This document shows, in pieces, positions 3,517-10,072 of a stretch of 13,778 nt of DNA. The notes under the pieces are model-generated. The model was not told where the DNA came from and did not search any database. It saw only the letters and a program-made list of their open reading frames with translations. The translations under genes were made by a program, and so were the position numbers. Positions within the stretch are counted from its first letter, which is position 1; each line of letters opens with the position of its first letter. Origin of the DNA: a virus; UHGV virus genome UHGV-0121437; one strand, given 5' to 3'.

Positions 3517-4074
3517 TCAGCAGTTCGTCATCAGGGCGTCACCGCCACCGCCGGTGGCTTTGCTGCGGCGCTGCTGGGTCAGACTTTCGGTGTGGTCGAG
3601 ACTGTTTTTCAGGCGGGTGAATGCCTGACTGGTTTCATCCGCCCTGTCAGTTACATCCTGCTTAAGTGCCGAAAAGGCGGTTTCCATCTCAGCAAGGCGC
3701 TGCTCAGTGGCGCTCAGTTTTTCCTGCACATGCTCAGCGACAGCGGTCACCGCTTCATGCACGTCATTCAGACGGGCGTCATCGCTGGCCTGTTTGCGGC
3801 CAAAAATGGATTTCACCTTTTCGGTCAGGGCGGTGAACACGGTTTCAGGCAGGTCTTCAAATTCCAGCTCAACAGGCGTTGCCACTGAAATCAGGTTTTC
3901 AGGGCTTAATTTGAAGCGGTTCAGAGGGTTGTGTTTTGCCGTGCGGCAGAATTCCAGGTATTCCGTGCCGAGGCTTGCCGGGTCATCGGTGACGGCCAGA
4001 CCCACCAGATAACATTTGCCTGTATTGGCAAAGTTCGGCTGAATTTCCATTGAGGTACTCGACCGCCGTGACAT
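3517..4074 (-). pseudogene. O: Capsid scaffolding protein gpO, N-terminally truncated fragment (about 100 N-terminal residues missing)
   Basis: 185-aa ORF whose body ([28 protein letters not shown] ... [11 protein letters not shown]) matches the C-terminal two-thirds of P2 O (about 284 aa as I recall). The first codons (MSRRSSTS) are read from the antisense of Q-derived sequence, so the start is fortuitous. Confidence 0.7.
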
Positions 4075-4162: not shown

Positions 4163-4990
4163 GTGCATCACAGCTCACCGATTTACGTCAAACGTAATAT
4201 TCTGGCCTCGACATTTATCCCGCATCCGTGGCTTTCCCAGCAGGATTTCAGCCGCTTTGTGCTGGATTTTCTGGTGTTCGGTAATGCGTTTCTGGAAAAG
4301 CGTTACAGCACCACCGGTAAGGTCATCAGACTGGAAACCTCACCGGCAAAATATACCCGCCGTGGCGTGGAGGAGGATGTTTACTGGTGGGTGCCGTCCT
4401 TCAACGAGCCGACAGCCTTCACGCCCGGCTCCGTGTTTCACCTGCTGGAGCCGGATATTAATCAGGAGCTGTACGGCCTGCCGGAATATCTCAGCGCCCT
4501 TAACTCTGCCTGGCTGAATGAGTCGGCCACGCTGTTCCGCCGCAAGTATTACGAAAATGGCGCTCATGCCGGATACATCATGTACGTTACCGATGCCGTG
4601 CAGGATCGCAACGATATCGAAATGCTTCGCGAAAACATGGTGAAGTCGAAAGGCCGCAACAACTTTAAAAACCTGTTTCTCTATGCCCCGCAGGGGAAAG
4701 CCGACGGCATTAAAATTATCCCGCTCAGTGAAGTGGCGACGAAGGACGATTTTTTTAATATCAAAAAAGCCAGCGCCGCTGACCTGCTGGACGCGCACCG
4801 CATCCCCTTTCAGTTGATGGGCGGTAAGCCGGAGAACGTCGGGTCGCTGGGTGATATTGAGAAAGTGGCAAAGGTCTTTGTCCGCAATGAGCTTATCCCG
4901 TTACAGGACAGGATTCGGGAAATAAACGGCTGGCTCGGTCAGGAGGTCATCCGCTTTAAAAACTACTCACTGGACACTGACAACAGCTGA
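4163..4990 (+). pseudogene. Q: Portal protein gpQ, 5'-truncated (first conventional start is GTG at 4163)
   Basis: 275-aa ORF, (V)HHSSPIYVKRNILASTFIPHPWLSQQDF ... YSLDTDNS, matching P2 Q (about 344 aa). The frame is open from 4043 and encodes Q-like [25 protein letters not shown] with no ATG/GTG/TTG before 4163; the authentic N-terminus is absent. Confidence 0.75.
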
Positions 4991-4995
4991 ACATC

Positions 4996-5017
4996 GCCGC
5001 CTGCGGGCGGCTTTTTT
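4996..5017 (+). terminator. Intrinsic terminator downstream of Q
   Basis: GCCGCC (4996-5001), loop TGCG, GGCGGC (5006-5011), then TTTTTT (5012-5017), 6 nt after the Q stop. Confidence 0.6.
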
Positions 5018-5158: not shown

Positions 5159-5177
5159 GTGCTTTCCCCGCCTCGCC
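5159..5177. other. cos site (19-nt cohesive-end sequence of P2-type phages)
   Basis: gtgctttccccgcctcgcc is the reverse complement of GGCGAGGCGGGGAAAGCAC, which I recall as the P2 cohesive end. It lies just beyond Q, as expected. Confidence 0.7.
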
Positions 5178-5227: not shown

Positions 5228-5257
5228 TTGACTGGATAAGACCTAAGGTGCATTAAT
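5228..5257 (+). promoter_or_regulatory. Candidate sigma70 promoter for the AT-rich cassette
   Basis: TTGACT (5228-5233), 18-bp spacer, then TGcATTAAT (extended -10-like, hexamer 5252-5257), about 60 bp upstream of the first cassette ATG. Prediction by eye only. Confidence 0.35.
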
Positions 5258-5315: not shown

Positions 5316-6365
5316 ATGTGCTACACTTTTATACAAACCTATGATAAAAGCGATAAAAAATCTTCCATTTTGGCGAACATTATGACGGATATTGAAACAG
5401 CTCGATGGAACACAGAAAGTGCCGCTTTGTTGGCACTATCAGAAATACATGGCGTTAGTTATTGGACTCTATATAAAGTTGCTCAAAAGGGAATCAGATT
5501 TAGAGACATTGTTACCAGCCAAACATTAGCCAACTTTGAGTATCTACTTGGAGTAAAACTTCATCGCCAACCTTATTATTTGAATGAAGGCAATTGGTCT
5601 GTTTTTCGGGATAGCATGATTTCTACGGCTAAAATATTACTCACACATTATCATAATAGTGGTTACAAAATCATCCACCATGGTTCTCCGAGCTATCCAG
5701 ACAAGTTGAATGACCTGTCTGAGCCGCCTTTCTGGTTGTTTGCTCAAGGCAATGTATCCTTGCTAGATAAAAAGTGTGTTGGAGTTGTCGGCACCAGAAA
5801 CCCAACCGCACTTGGAATTTATTTAACTCAAGCAGTAATCTCGCAATTTATAGATTCGGATTATTCAACTGTAAGCGGTTTAGCATATGGTATAGATCAA
5901 TCTGCACATGAAGCATCCCTGTTATTTAAAATACCGACAATTGCTGTGTTAGGTACTGGCGTAAACTCAAATTATCCCAAAAATAGTGGCGAGATGAGAG
6001 GCCATATTGTAAATAATGGCGGACTGATTCTTACTGAGTATTTACCAAACCAAAAACCATCACAGGAAAACTTTGTTCGTAGAAATAGAATTCAAGCAGC
6101 TTTAAGTGATGTATTGATCCCAGTTGAATGGGGCCTAAAAAGTGGGACATCTCATACTGTGAGATATGCTGCTCAATTAAAAAGAGCGATACTTTGTCCT
6201 TTACTTAGGGGAACTACACCTCAAGAAGAGATTAAACATGCCTTGTCAGAGTACTCAGCTACGATAATGAATATTCCACTATCCGATTTTAAAGACGTGC
6301 AAAGCTTAATTAAATCAGCATCCGGTGTAAAAACACAGCAACTTTCTCTTCTGGGAGATGAATAA
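5316..6365 (+). CDS. DprA/Smf-like protein (helix-hairpin-helix-like N-terminus plus Rossmann/SLOG-type DprA core)
   Basis: 349-aa ORF in AT-rich DNA. Core motifs resemble the DprA Rossmann domain: VGVVGTRNPTALG, VSGLAYGIDQSAHEASL, TIAVLGTGVNSNYPKNS, FVRRNRIQAALSDVLIPVEWGLKSGTSHTVRYA. The start may instead be the in-frame ATG at 5382; neither has a strong ribosome-binding site. Confidence 0.7.
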   Translation: MCYTFIQTYDKSDKKSSILANIMTDIETARWNTESAALLALSEIHGVSYWTLYKVAQKGIRFRDIVTSQTLANFEYLLGVKLHRQPYYLNEGNWSVFRDSMISTAKILLTHYHNSGYKIIHHGSPSYPDKLNDLSEPPFWLFAQGNVSLLDKKCVGVVGTRNPTALGIYLTQAVISQFIDSDYSTVSGLAYGIDQSAHEASLLFKIPTIAVLGTGVNSNYPKNSGEMRGHIVNNGGLILTEYLPNQKPSQENFVRRNRIQAALSDVLIPVEWGLKSGTSHTVRYAAQLKRAILCPLLRGTTPQEEIKHALSEYSATIMNIPLSDFKDVQSLIKSASGVKTQQLSLLGDE

Positions 6366-7641
6366 TATGTATTTAAAGGCAGTTATATTTTCAATCGCAG
6401 ATGTTGTATTACCATTAACATCTAACACTCAACCTCAGGAACTAAAATCTAGAATCGACTCTGAATTACGTAAGTTGTTTGCGTTTTTGTCATCAAAAGG
6501 GATTAAAGTTATCTTCTTGACAAATAAAAATAGAAACGTGAGAACACATGACGGGATCGTAACACTAGACGAATACCTAAAAAGGAAATTCCCAGAATCA
6601 ATTCACTTTTGCCGTGAACTCGACAACAACATACCAGCAAAACAAACAGGGAAGGCCATAGATTTCATCATGGCTGCGTTAGAATTAAAACGAAACGAAA
6701 TGATCTATGTAGGGCGTTCTCAGGAAGACTTACAAGCAGCTACCAACGGGAATACCCTATTTATTAATGCGACCTGGTATGAACCGGTTACTGAGTACGG
6801 TTTTCAATTTTCAGAACCCAAAGAAATCGCTAGATTTATTGATGTCTTTTGCTTAAGAGAGCAGTTGTGGGGATGGCAAGGGCATTTTAATGAAGATGTT
6901 CACTACTACGCCTTAGCACCATTTAGCACATATGTCCCTGAATTTACAATGTATTCAGCCAATGCAAGAGACCTCGCAAAGCTATCGGTTGGAAGCCCCG
7001 ATTTTTGGATAAGATATCTTGGTGCTAGCATTTATTTCTCTGGCTTAAGTGAAGGAGCAAGTTTTATAACCACCTACGTTGGACATAACGCTGAAGATCC
7101 TTATAAACTAGCAAACATTATGGAGCATGACCTAAAAGGTTTAGCAGTCTCATTCAAAGGAAAGTATCTAAAAGATCTATTCTTACGACATACAACAGCT
7201 ATTAAATCACAGCAAGCTCGGATAGCTAAGCAAGAAGTAAACATCACATCTCAAATAAACACCGTTAATTTAAATCCTGCCCCTATTAAAAACCTCATCA
7301 CCGGCGAAAGATATACCAACCCTCCTAAATTGAAAGGTAAGAAAATATTAGTTATTGATGATTTTTGCACTGAAGGAAATGCTCATGAAACAGCCAGAAT
7401 GTATCTAAAAGCTGCAGGCGCAAATGTAATAAATATATCGTGGTTAAAAACCATCAATCGTGACGTTTCTATCTGTGAACCAACTCGCAAGATACGGCCA
7501 TGGGAGGCCAATACACTTGATGTTGATGACATTAACTATGTCGGTACGATTGGTTATGCTGAAAATGTAACTCACGGTAGTGCACCTCAAGTGTTATCAG
7601 AAAAAATTCAACAATATGATAACTGGGACTGGCCACAATAA
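6358..7641 (+). CDS. Two-domain protein: N-terminal HAD-like fold with degenerate catalytic motifs, C-terminal type I phosphoribosyltransferase (PRTase) domain
   Basis: 427-aa ORF in AT-rich DNA. The C-terminal KKILVIDDFCTEGNAHETARMYLKAAGANVI fits the PRPP-binding loop of type I PRTases (four hydrophobic residues, DD, then T-x-G). The N-terminal KAVIFSIADVVLPL, KVIFLTNKN and MIYVGRSQEDLQAATNGNTLFINATW resemble HAD motifs I, II and IV, but the nucleophile position is not Asp. It overlaps the upstream gene by 8 bp; an alternative ATG at 6367 has GGGAG 9 nt upstream. Confidence 0.65.
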   Translation: MNNMYLKAVIFSIADVVLPLTSNTQPQELKSRIDSELRKLFAFLSSKGIKVIFLTNKNRNVRTHDGIVTLDEYLKRKFPESIHFCRELDNNIPAKQTGKAIDFIMAALELKRNEMIYVGRSQEDLQAATNGNTLFINATWYEPVTEYGFQFSEPKEIARFIDVFCLREQLWGWQGHFNEDVHYYALAPFSTYVPEFTMYSANARDLAKLSVGSPDFWIRYLGASIYFSGLSEGASFITTYVGHNAEDPYKLANIMEHDLKGLAVSFKGKYLKDLFLRHTTAIKSQQARIAKQEVNITSQINTVNLNPAPIKNLITGERYTNPPKLKGKKILVIDDFCTEGNAHETARMYLKAAGANVINISWLKTINRDVSICEPTRKIRPWEANTLDVDDINYVGTIGYAENVTHGSAPQVLSEKIQQYDNWDWPQ

Positions 7642-7654
7642 ATTAATCCCATAA

Positions 7655-7690
7655 TTTAAAGTGCCCCCTAATAATGGGAGGCACTTTAAA
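7655..7690. terminator. Strong hairpin, probable (possibly bidirectional) terminator between the cassette and A
   Basis: Perfect 11-bp stem: tttaaagtgcc (7655-7665) pairs with ggcactttaaa (7680-7690), 14-nt loop, A/T-rich flanks; 14 bp after the PRTase-gene stop. Confidence 0.5.
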
Positions 7691-7816
7691 TATTAAGAAG
7701 ATAATGTCATTAAGCGAAATTTAACTATAATTTAAAACATTACAATTATTATTTTTTAAACTTTACTATTACCCAATCCATCAATAAGACCTGTATTTAT
7801 TCGTAATTTAATAGCC

Positions 7817-10072
7817 TTACCACTCATCAATCACTGGATATTTGAATTTTTTATTATCATAAATCACCATCGCCCCACGCGCCAGCGCCTCAAGCTCCCA
7901 TCGCTGAGGCCTGATACCGTTCTGAGCAAGGTCAACGCGGATACGGGTAATTTGCAATCGTTCCGGCCGGGTCAGCCTGGCCGATGGTGCAATTTCATGT
8001 GGTTTTAACGGGCTTCCGTTTCTTTGCTGACGATTTGGTGTTCTCAGGCCGTGTTTTAATGCGCCCCTGAGCACCCTCACGACCTCCGGGTCATTCCATT
8101 CGATAACACCGTCATCAACCAGATTAAGCACTGCTGCGGCGTGTTCAGAAGGTGTGGGAGCCGGTAACGAAGTATCACCACCGGTGAGCTTTCCACAGTT
8201 ATTGACAGGACTCCGAGGCGCGGCGATGCCGCTTTTTAAAGTCAAAGGCTCAACGACCGGCACTTTCGGAACAATGCGCCAGTCCGTCGTTCTGGTGATA
8301 TGAATATGACGCGCGCCGAGATGCGGCGCGTAAATGCCGACCACTCTCCCGACTTCTTCCTCGTACTCGTTAACGTCATCCGACGGACTACGGGCAACCC
8401 TGACAGTCTGACAATCGCGCGGAACATTTGCCCCACCCTGCGCGCTGATATACAACGCAAAATCACCACTGTCTGCGGCAGCGCGTGCAGCCTCGACGCG
8501 TTCGTCAAACTCATCAGCAATGCTGACGCCGCGAGGCAATTTGCGTAGTTCACGGTAAGCCCCCATTGTCGGCAGGCCAACCGTTTTAAATTGCGGAATG
8601 CGCCACGTTGACGCCCATGCGGTAACAGCCGCGGCAGTGTCTTTCAGCGGCCTGCCGGTATCGTTATCGAGCTGACCATCCAGTGCATAGCCATCGATGT
8701 TTTTTGAGATGTATTTCGCGATATATCCCGCAGCACCGCCCCGGTTAAGGTGTTTTGCCTGAAAACGGTTTCGCGCGGCTCCTCTTTCGTCACCATCCTC
8801 TTTGAGCGCATAGCGACGCATGATTTCGATAATCTGGTTACGCTGGCGTGGATTACAAAAAAGCATCATATGCCAGTGCGGCGTTCCGTCGTGGTGTGGC
8901 TCGACGACTCGCAAACCGTAGACCTGTAAATCATTATCCTTGAATGCCGTGCGCATCAGGCTCCAGATGCGGCAGAGATAACGCTGCGCATCCTTTGGAT
9001 TAAATGCCTCATCATTCCAGCCGTGATTTAGCTGGACGGTTTTACTTTCGCCTTTTCCGACCTGACGTGTCGGGTGATACTTTGACGGCGCGGTCAGAGT
9101 GATAAACATCCCCACATCACCCTCTGCGGCGGCGTAACGCTCAATACCGGCGATGGTGTTCATCAGCTCCATCCGGCGAATTTCAGGATTAGAAATACTG
9201 CCCATCACCTTACTGATAAGGTCGATGCGCTCGCCGGTTTCCCTGTTTTCGAGGTCACACGATTTAAGAAATTCCAGATTTGCCTGGCGGCGTGCACGCA
9301 CATCACGAATGGCATGTTTACTGGCATAAGGAGAACGGTCTTTATTGACCTCCCCGACAGCAATCAGTAACGCCTCATGCCAGCGCATACGCTGGCCTTT
9401 AAGCTGATGAGTCCACCATTCATCGTTAAACAGACGGGCAATGGCAGAATATGCCTGCCTCGTGGTCATCTGTCCTTTACGGTATTTTTTCCAGTAGAGA
9501 GGGGAAATATTGAAAGCACGTGCAGCGCCAGCAACATGACCATACAGATGCGCCTGCGCCTCATCTGTAAACAGCGATTCTTTCTCGCCATGTGCATCAA
9601 CCCATGCATCGCAGAGTTCCTCATACATCATGAAAAGCTGCGATGAGATACGGGCGGCAAACTTTTTCAGCTCCTTGTCATTCATTCCAGGCAGGCGCGC
9701 ATAGTGGTCACGCTCTGCCAGAAACAGCAACGACGCGTCGGTGTTCATTTCATGGCGCTGATTCACGCGCTCAATACGCGGCCATAAACGGCGCTGAAAA
9801 GTGGATGTGAGGAAATAAAACCCGTGCACCGGGCTTTTATTGCGCCGGATGTAGTCATAGCGTGAAGTAAACAGCGAGCGCAAAAAGTAAGGCAGGCGAT
9901 TAATCGTGGATAAAACACCTTGCACCTGACGCATCTCGTCACGTGTAAGGGGTCTTTCGCGCCCGACGGCCTCGCGTGGCGCGTTCCATGCATAAGCACC
10001 GGTAAACGTCTCACCGGTGCCTGCGGCAAATGCTGACGGAGGGACAAAACGCCCGGAGGCTTTAACGGCCAT
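7817..10072 (-). CDS. A: Replication initiation protein gpA (rolling-circle nicking endonuclease)
   Basis: The long ORF matches P2 A from MAVKASGRFVPPSAFAAGTGETFTGAYAWNAPREAV. The start is placed at the ATG at 10070-10072; the ORF-track start at 10114 adds 14 codons with no ribosome-binding site. Confidence 0.9.
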   Translation of the reverse strand: MAVKASGRFVPPSAFAAGTGETFTGAYAWNAPREAVGRERPLTRDEMRQVQGVLSTINRLPYFLRSLFTSRYDYIRRNKSPVHGFYFLTSTFQRRLWPRIERVNQRHEMNTDASLLFLAERDHYARLPGMNDKELKKFAARISSQLFMMYEELCDAWVDAHGEKESLFTDEAQAHLYGHVAGAARAFNISPLYWKKYRKGQMTTRQAYSAIARLFNDEWWTHQLKGQRMRWHEALLIAVGEVNKDRSPYASKHAIRDVRARRQANLEFLKSCDLENRETGERIDLISKVMGSISNPEIRRMELMNTIAGIERYAAAEGDVGMFITLTAPSKYHPTRQVGKGESKTVQLNHGWNDEAFNPKDAQRYLCRIWSLMRTAFKDNDLQVYGLRVVEPHHDGTPHWHMMLFCNPRQRNQIIEIMRRYALKEDGDERGAARNRFQAKHLNRGGAAGYIAKYISKNIDGYALDGQLDNDTGRPLKDTAAAVTAWASTWRIPQFKTVGLPTMGAYRELRKLPRGVSIADEFDERVEAARAAADSGDFALYISAQGGANVPRDCQTVRVARSPSDDVNEYEEEVGRVVGIYAPHLGARHIHITRTTDWRIVPKVPVVEPLTLKSGIAAPRSPVNNCGKLTGGDTSLPAPTPSEHAAAVLNLVDDGVIEWNDPEVVRVLRGALKHGLRTPNRQQRNGSPLKPHEIAPSARLTRPERLQITRIRVDLAQNGIRPQRWELEALARGAMVIYDNKKFKYPVIDEW

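Follow-up and report, generated by a model that had tools for sequence, protein, structure and literature searches.

The viral genome UHGV-0121437, a stretch of 13,778 nucleotides called the window below, contains on its plus strand a gene for ShosT. This protein, for which crystal structures and functional tests already exist, is the toxin of ShosTA, an anti-phage system of two genes that P2-like prophages carry. The open reading frame (ORF) at 6358..7641 is uninterrupted, with 427 codons and a stop, and its product is 100% identical over 427 residues to the protein in the PDB entries 8ZVB, 8ZVC and 8ZVD, and over 425 residues to that in 9W2P and 9W2Q; the PADLOC ShosT model PDLC03012 matches positions 1-427 of 427 with E = 4e-296. 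The protein, its partner, its structures and its defence phenotype are already published (2022-2026). Taken as a whole, the locus is very probably best explained as the ShosT toxin of a type IV toxin-antitoxin/abortive-infection system, carried as cos-proximal cargo of a P2-like prophage and acting by a mechanism that consumes phosphoribosyl pyrophosphate (PRPP). A preliminary description made from the raw sequence had implied that this fusion of a HAD-like domain to a phosphoribosyltransferase (PRTase) domain was novel; as the exact protein was characterised between 2022 and 2026, that implication lapses and the description has little weight as a discovery, though it recognised a real two-domain defence effector and the anomaly in its catalytic motif. 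To the published work the present analysis makes two small additions, namely the family-wide degeneration of the HAD active site and the identity of ComFC as the solved structure that, ShosT aside, comes closest to the PRTase domain.

The biological start of shosT is almost certainly the fourth codon of the ORF, the ATG at 6367, and not the ATG at 6358. By sequence reading, a GGGAG Shine-Dalgarno element at 6353-6357 lies 9 nt 5' of the former and 0 nt from the latter; ShosT homologues start at the position of codon 4, and the RefSeq entry for Escherichia coli APEC O1 gives 424 aa for ShosT and 327 aa for ShosA, to which 424-aa form the 6358 start adds the three codons MNN. Both structure papers discussed below number from ATG 6367. 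Residues are given here in the 427-residue numbering, and a residue of the papers is the residue here minus 3 (R56 is R59, K92 is K95, and D331/D332 are D334/D335). All peptides cited in the preliminary description are found in the 427-residue product: KAVIFSIADVVL at residues 7-18, KVIFLTNKN at 50-58, MIYVGRSQEDLQAATNGNTLFINATW at 115-140 and KKILVIDDFCTEGNA at 328-342. The genes and domains are as follows.

5382..6365, plus strand: shosA, DprA-like antitoxin of 327 aa (PADLOC, Pfam, PDB, RefSeq)
6353..6357, plus strand: putative Shine-Dalgarno element GGGAG of shosT, within the 3' end of shosA (sequence reading)
6367..7641, plus strand: shosT, toxin of 424 aa (PDB identity, PADLOC, RefSeq)
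6367..6858, plus strand: N-terminal HAD-fold domain, residues 4-167 (paper numbering 1-164)
6859..7638, plus strand: non-canonical type I PRTase domain at the C-terminus (residues 168-427)

The partner gene expected of a ShosTA system adjoins shosT on the same strand. While the longest shosA ORF begins at 5316, the annotated and crystallised protein begins at 5382; the PADLOC ShosA model covers residues 23-349 of the long ORF (2.2e-231), the Pfam family DNA_processg_A is recovered at 9.8e-60, and the protein matches PDB 9VZO (327 residues) and 8ZVA (313 residues). The shosA stop codon, TAA at 6363-6365, ends 1 nt ahead of the shosT ATG at 6367, an arrangement that, judged from the sequence, would allow translational coupling. 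Scans of ShosT against Pfam and NCBIfam recovered HAD and PRTase models at sub-threshold scores only (weak matches to Pribosyltran, HAD, OPRT, APRT and XPRT), none of the curated thresholds of these models being reached, and taken alone these matches would leave the protein unidentified; this explains the RefSeq name 'hypothetical protein'.

Experiments on the identical proteins provide the functional part of the argument. The pair was first tested as 'DprA + PRTase', taken from the cos-adjacent hotspot of P2, by Rousset et al. 2022 (PMC9122126), and protects against T7 and lambda; according to Millman et al. it is the same as the toxin-antitoxin pair ShosTA of Kimelman et al. 2012. That ShosT alone is toxic, that ShosA rescues and that the pair protects against phage has been shown (PMC11961720, PMC12961424, PMC9122126). 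Pu et al. 2025 (PMC11961720) describe a HAD-fold 'pyrophosphatase' domain at the N-terminus and, at the C-terminus, a PRTase domain that binds PRPP. They report a modest, Mg2+-independent consumption of pyrophosphate (PPi), measured with an end-point PPi sensor at 1 µM enzyme and 100 µM PPi, and a phosphate contacted by R56, by N53 and K54 at motif II through their backbone, and by K92 through a water; after a PPi soak, orthophosphate occupied this site though none had been added. The PRTase domain in their hands bound Mg-PRPP and none of the purines tested. The double mutation D331A/D332A abolished toxicity and R56A reduced it marginally, metabolomics pointed to purine metabolism, and cells expressing ShosT filamented and gained genome duplications. 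Their ShosA binds DNA in single-stranded form (ssDNA) and not ShosT, is unstable through its C-terminus, and the system is triggered by T7 Gp0.7. Yang et al. 2026 in Nucleic Acids Research (PMC12961424) found ShosT to be monomeric, with six strands in its sheet, nine residues in its PPi loop and a long flexible loop, PRPP binding to be essential for its toxicity, and ShosA to be dimeric and to bind RecA in a way that is sensitive to ssDNA; they call the N-terminal domain 'of unknown function'. According to this published work ShosT disturbs purine metabolism and DNA replication, Mg-PRPP is bound through the PPi, PRPP and flexible loops of the C-terminal domain (PRPP-bound crystal structures 8ZVC and 9W2Q), and ShosA neutralises ShosT by way of ssDNA binding, dimerisation and RecA, without binding the toxin. 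Phage escape mutations lie in the genes for SSB and for the primase-helicase.

These data are consistent with a mechanism in which ShosT would use PRPP for phosphoribosyl transfer to some acceptor, or would simply drain PRPP, while the N-terminal domain might capture or remove the PPi product and thereby pull the PRTase reaction forward. The resulting damage to nucleotide pools and replication would be bearable only while ShosA and RecA carry out repair, and an infection that removes or diverts ShosA would unleash the toxin. Two routes to this loss could be envisaged: T7 Gp0.7 might shut off host transcription, which would tell on an unstable antitoxin, or phage ssDNA intermediates might bring it about. 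The proposal of the preliminary description that ShosT is a nucleotide-pool effector working with a DprA-like partner fits the non-toxicity of D331A/D332A, the purine metabolomics and the rescue by ShosA (PMC11961720, PMC12961424).

Several points weigh against such a mechanism. No phosphoribosyl transfer has been reported; PRPP is bound but no tested purine, and both papers state the acceptor and the chemistry of toxicity to be unknown (PMC11961720, PMC12961424). The pyrophosphatase claim derives from one end-point assay, for which the methods section describes no catalytic-mutant control (PMC11961720), and it concerns a domain in which the HAD nucleophile is absent, as are the Asp+2 acid/base and one Mg ligand. 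The R56A mutation lowers toxicity only marginally (PMC11961720), at a residue that by our counts is Trp in 72 of 115 homologues. Furthermore, the triggers proposed in the two papers differ (PMC11961720, PMC12961424). The present analysis comprises sequence, profile and fold comparisons together with the literature, and what is said of function rests on the published experiments.

The N-terminal domain possesses the Rossmannoid core fold of the HAD superfamily. A profile of this region (172 residues, 30 homologues) run against the PDB recovered HAD enzymes, with 2HI0 as the best hit (E = 1.1e-5), and a comparison with E. coli Gph gave a probability of 93.9% and E = 1.6e-7, with motifs II to IV aligned. 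These separate profile and fold searches, together with the crystal structures (PMC11961720), bear out what the preliminary description had surmised from motif spacing, namely that this half is HAD-like; likewise, its reading of a non-canonical Ser-Ile-Ala-Asp at motif I proves correct and extends to the family. Curated HAD models nonetheless stay below threshold for ShosT (PF00702, 21.7 bits against 26.4; PF13419, 17.5 against 23.8; TIGR01662, 16 bits against a cut-off of 44.6); some of its homologues have precomputed HAD matches. Conservation of the following motifs was counted among 115 full-length ShosT homologues, down to about 35% identity.

6379..6411, plus strand: degenerate HAD motif I, AVIF-S12-I-A14-D15-V-V-L (homologue counts, strand in the structure model, comparison with Gph and GmhB)
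6505..6525, plus strand: HAD motif II, KVIFLT55N56 (aligned to 'VVSNK' and 'LVTNK' of HAD enzymes)
6640..6642, plus strand: HAD motif III lysine, K95 here and K92 in the structure papers (alignment with its counterpart in 2HI0 and Gph)
6700..6729, plus strand: HAD motif IV, MIYVG119-R120-SQE-D124 (alignment with 2HI0, 'YIGDSEID', and Gph, 'FVGDSRND')

Motif I does not conform to the hhhhDxDx(T/V) pattern of the superfamily. The D-x-D site of HAD enzymes reads S12-I13-A14-D15, with a Ser in place of the Asp nucleophile and an Ala in place of the Asp+2 acid/base. Across the homologues the nucleophile position is occupied by S (96), G (16), T (1) and A (1), with one gap, and never by D, while at +2 there is E in 59 of them and a variable residue in the others. 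The register was set from the point where strand beta-1 ends in the structure model (residues 8-11, directly followed by S12), with the help of a comparison to Gph and GmhB and of a weak 2OM6 alignment. Gph, with GVAF-D-L-D-G-T-L, and GmhB, with AIFL-D-R-D-G-T-I, match the family consensus GVIL-S-V-E-D-(T/V)-L in position. Global hhalign runs of the N-terminal profile were uninformative here, the GmhB alignment being spurious and the cap insertion of Gph shifting the N-terminus, and a local run against GmhB aligned motif II alone. The Ser/Thr of motif II and the Lys of motif III are in place as T55 and K95, which align with their counterparts in 2HI0 and Gph: the former position is T/A/S/G, the adjacent N56 is N in 113 of the 115, and K95 is K in 108 and R in 7. 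In motif IV, which in HAD enzymes has the two-acid form (G/S)Dx3-4(D/E), the second acidic residue alone is kept; D124 is present in all 115 homologues, and position 120 is A/S/N/R in every one.

HAD phosphatases need an aspartyl-phosphate intermediate, an Asp+2 general acid/base and an Mg2+ bound to the carboxylates of motifs I and IV. As the nucleophile, the Asp+2 acid/base and one Mg ligand are all lost, classical HAD catalysis is impossible in ShosT. As judged from the homologue sequences, loss of the nucleophile is family-wide and not peculiar to the protein in the window, and the reported Mg2+ independence fits with the absence of classical HAD catalysis. Compared with HAD phosphatases such as the 'type III' inorganic pyrophosphatase BT2127 (3QU2) and the phosphoglycolate phosphatases 2HI0 and E. 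coli Gph, ShosT thus has Ser/Gly for the nucleophile, is deprived of the Asp+2 and the first motif IV Asp, has no C1 cap but a small beta-hairpin after motif II instead, and has a reported activity that is Mg2+-independent. The missing catalytic residues are discussed in neither structure paper (PMC11961720, PMC12961424). R59 (window 6532-6534), mutated there as R56, is Arg in just 16 homologues; being clade-specific, it is a weak probe of conserved function as a 'pyrophosphatase-dead' control. Together, the residue losses and the poor conservation of this Arg call the pyrophosphatase assignment into question.

It is accordingly a real, if minority, possibility that the N-terminal half is a catalytically degenerate HAD pseudo-phosphatase, a module that binds PPi, phosphate or a phospho-ligand for product capture, allosteric control or substrate recognition, with the PRTase domain alone being toxic. 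The phosphate-binding residues T55, N56, K95 and D124 are retained where the nucleophile, the +2 residue and the first motif IV Asp have gone, the published activity is Mg2+-independent unlike that of classical HAD enzymes and stems from the end-point sensor assay, R56A hardly alters toxicity (PMC11961720), and Yang et al. assign the domain no function. Conversely, Pu et al. did observe PPi consumption, and orthophosphate after the soak with no phosphate added (PMC11961720); the sequence alone is compatible with a non-covalent, water-mediated mechanism, and the strong conservation of D124, E114 and D15 could signify an altered catalytic centre. The preliminary view of the HAD domain as altered or inactive, and possibly regulatory, survives as this alternative: the residues for classical catalysis are lost, while a weak activity is published (PMC11961720).

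The stretch joining the two domains (residues 135-172, window 6760-6873) has the pattern F-x-N-A-T-W-Y...Y-G-F-x-F...P-x-x-I-A-R-F-I-D-x-F-C-L-R-E-x-x-W and is among the best-conserved parts of the ShosT family, with W140, G148 and W171 invariant. Such conservation suggests a rigid domain interface that might couple the two halves functionally.

In the C-terminal domain, the core fold of the phosphoribosyltransferases is present and the family profile matches type I PRTases only. The PRTase with a PRPP loop read by the preliminary description is thereby upheld, by profile and fold searches as well as by PRPP-bound crystals (PMC11961720, PMC12961424), and both halves of the protein have accordingly withstood separate examination. 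Pfam PF00156 scores ShosT at 22 bits, below its gathering cut-off of 26.3. Conservation in this domain was counted among 58 homologues, and two segments are listed here.

7186..7260, plus strand: 'RHTTAxKSQxAR...NQxNT' segment, residues 277-301 (conservation)
7339..7383, plus strand: PRPP loop KKILVID334D335FCT338EG340NA (conservation, alignment to the PRPP loops of PRTases)

The acidic pair D334 and D335 of the PRPP loop is invariant, as are T338 and G340 of its T-x-G element. In the upstream segment R277 and R288 are invariant and H278, S284, Q299 and N301 are conserved in at least 90%; this segment probably falls within the flexible loop of the structure papers, which becomes ordered over PRPP. 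Relative to the type I enzymes APRT, HGPRT and OPRT and to PRPP synthetase, ShosT differs in being a monomer with a six-stranded sheet, nine-residue PPi loop and long flexible loop, in binding no purine tested (PMC11961720) and in its sub-threshold PF00156 score.

The closest solved fold to this domain (window 6859-7638) outside ShosT itself is ComFC (Helicobacter pylori, 7P0H), a competence protein that partners DprA in natural transformation, and not a nucleotide-salvage PRTase. ComFC is a PRPP-binding phosphoribosyltransferase-fold protein without a known acceptor; its PPi loop is lengthened and its sheet extended at the N-terminal side, it binds ssDNA, and it has homologues that interact with DprA. 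Iyer et al. 2017 described ComFC-like PRTases coupled to DprA in a helicase-containing relative of ShosTA; ComF is mentioned in neither ShosTA structure paper (PMC11961720, PMC12961424). In sequence, no relationship was detected beyond the PRPP loop: 7P0H is not among the profile matches of the ShosT C-terminal family, hhalign against the E. coli homologue YhgH/GntX, whether as a single sequence or as a 54-sequence profile, aligned the generic PRPP loop alone (34-35 columns, probability 22-44%), and an NCBIfam scan of ShosT matched no ComF model. The YhgH profile is shallow because its homologue search gave only relatives of at least 66% identity. ShosT is not assigned to the ComF/ComFC family, for there is no profile similarity across the phosphoribosyltransferase domain and the N-terminal zinc finger of ComFC is replaced by the HAD domain; ComFC is moreover reported to self-associate and is not known to be toxic, whereas ShosT is a monomer (PMC12961424). 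ShosT thus resembles ComFC in structure only, a specific relationship not being confirmed in sequence.

This resemblance raises the idea, which we consider unlikely, that ShosT is a weaponised relative of ComFC whose PRTase domain might phosphoribosylate an ssDNA base, or bind replication intermediates in a PRPP-dependent manner, rather than act on a free nucleobase, with ShosA (DprA) and RecA carrying out repair, by analogy with DarT/DarG on ssDNA. Several observations speak for such a role: ComFC itself binds both PRPP and ssDNA, with a longer PPi loop, N-terminal strands extending the sheet and homologues that interact with DprA; ShosT bound no tested free purine (PMC11961720); the antitoxin works on ssDNA and RecA and not on the toxin (PMC11961720, PMC12961424); the toxic phenotype is one of DNA damage and duplication (PMC11961720); and the escape mutations map to SSB and primase-helicase genes. 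Against this, no DNA binding or modification by ShosT is reported, the metabolomics point to purine metabolism (PMC11961720), the sequence comparisons stop at the generic PRPP loop and the zinc finger is missing, and the extra structural similarity may stem from common loop lengths only. A broader version of the idea is equally improbable, in which ShosTA as a whole would be a weaponised DprA-ComFC derivative, its PRTase domain acting on ssDNA or on another replication-linked, non-purine acceptor and its HAD domain being a PPi/phosphate-binding module and not a pyrophosphatase; if true, a DprA-ComFC origin would explain both the absent free-base acceptor and an antitoxin that operates through ssDNA and RecA rather than by binding the toxin. 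The ComFC-like character of the PRTase domain ties both halves of ShosTA to the DprA/ComFC machinery for handling ssDNA, which suggests that the search for the acceptor should go beyond free purines.

Still less probable is that ShosT is non-enzymatic in vivo and serves as a PRPP sensor or sequesterer that deregulates purine and pyrimidine synthesis, in the manner of the PurR and PyrR phosphoribosyltransferase folds, which is the second model in the discussion of Yang et al. (PMC12961424). That PRPP binding is essential to toxicity and that no product was found (PMC12961424) would agree with it, yet no domain for binding DNA or RNA can be recognised in ShosT, the whole family keeps the catalytic DD pair and the PRPP loop unchanged, a fused domain that handles PPi or phosphate is easier to understand if PPi is a product, and stoichiometric sequestration would require high protein levels. 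Finally, an ordinary nucleotide-salvage PRTase or sugar phosphatase lying in the prophage by chance, to which the weak Pfam and NCBIfam matches might point, is virtually inconceivable, as no curated threshold is reached and the gene sits with an antitoxin in a defence hotspot in few E. coli genomes; such a housekeeping enzyme is ruled out by the published toxicity and defence assays (PMC11961720, PMC12961424).

With regard to known systems, the toxin-antitoxin pair of the window is that described as DprA-PRTase or 'DprA-PPRT' from E. coli APEC O1 and KTE181, with an identical protein, the same upstream ShosA and the same P2-prophage hotspot; it differs in that the surrounding prophage here has a 2.36-kb deletion not found in the best-matching genomes. 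PsyrTA/RqlHI is similar in having a DprA-like antitoxin, the ShosA of the window matching the PADLOC PsyrA model at 3.8e-24, and a toxin with a PRTase domain according to the literature (including PMC9122126); however, the PRTase there goes with a RecQ-like SFII helicase and that of ShosT with a HAD domain, and the PADLOC scan of ShosT matched no PsyrT model. The pairing of ShosT with ShosA recurs in three distant homologues of 35-40% identity, from a cyanobacterium, Methylobacterium and Photobacterium, each with a DprA-like gene directly upstream. Their neighbours are mobile or defence genes: integrases, resolvases, an Abi_2 gene, a PLD-SNF2 helicase or phage tail genes. At the Cyanobacterium aponinum locus (CP138348.1, 1-6841) a PLD-SNF2/helicase gene stands upstream and an Abi_2 gene downstream of the ShosTA homologue, and the neighbourhood looks like a defence island.

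As a whole, the window is a P2-like prophage: it has genes for lysis, head and portal as well as gpA, cox, C and int. On the minus strand are lysozyme, holin, X, L, M, N and O, followed by the plus-strand portal gene, then cos and shosA-shosT; past the cassette comes the gpA replication endonuclease, on the minus strand, and after it the early genes, cox, C and the integrase. Two further sites lie between the portal gene and shosA.

4996..5011, plus strand: terminator-like site, a GC-rich hairpin followed by a T run, after the portal gene (consensus scan only)
5159..5177, no strand assigned: P2-type cos cohesive-end site, the reverse complement of GGCGAGGCGGGGAAAGCAC (read from the sequence)

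The 19-mer at 5159-5177 is what we take to be the P2 cos sequence. For Peduovirus P24C9 the linear record stops at window position 5169 and for Escherichia phage 10W at 5188, within this 19-mer or right next to it, which is consistent with cos at this point. The cassette starts to the right of cos, which is about 200 bp upstream of shosA; the cos position and the ends of these records place it just inside the right end of the packaged genome. Both P24C9 and 10W are viable phages and have the cassette at 99.9% identity, and it occurs in 30 of 5426 complete E. coli genomes. The GC content is 36-41% over shosA, shosT and the spacer before gpA (window about 5500-8000) against 51-62% in the rest of the prophage, and the cassette therefore has the look of cargo gained by horizontal transfer. 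When the window was scanned for Rfam families and tRNAs, nothing was recovered.

A consensus promoter scan between cos and shosA returned no site. By eye, a candidate shosA promoter can be discerned at 5228-5257, with TTGACT, an 18-nt spacer and TGcATTAAT as an extended -10-like element; the scan missed it because the second hexamer has no A at position 2.

The deletion in this prophage lies at the junction 4054-4056, where 2358 bp present in APEC O1 and in the E. coli genomes that match best are missing. It affects the genes at 3517..4074 (minus strand) and 4163..4990 (plus strand), having taken one third of the gpO scaffold gene, at its N-terminal end, together with the O/P promoter region, the entire terminase ATPase gene gpP and the first approximately 33 codons of the gpQ portal gene. 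In view of these losses in gpO, gpP and gpQ the prophage of the window should be unable to package DNA; it still has the defence cassette, gpA, cox, C and int.

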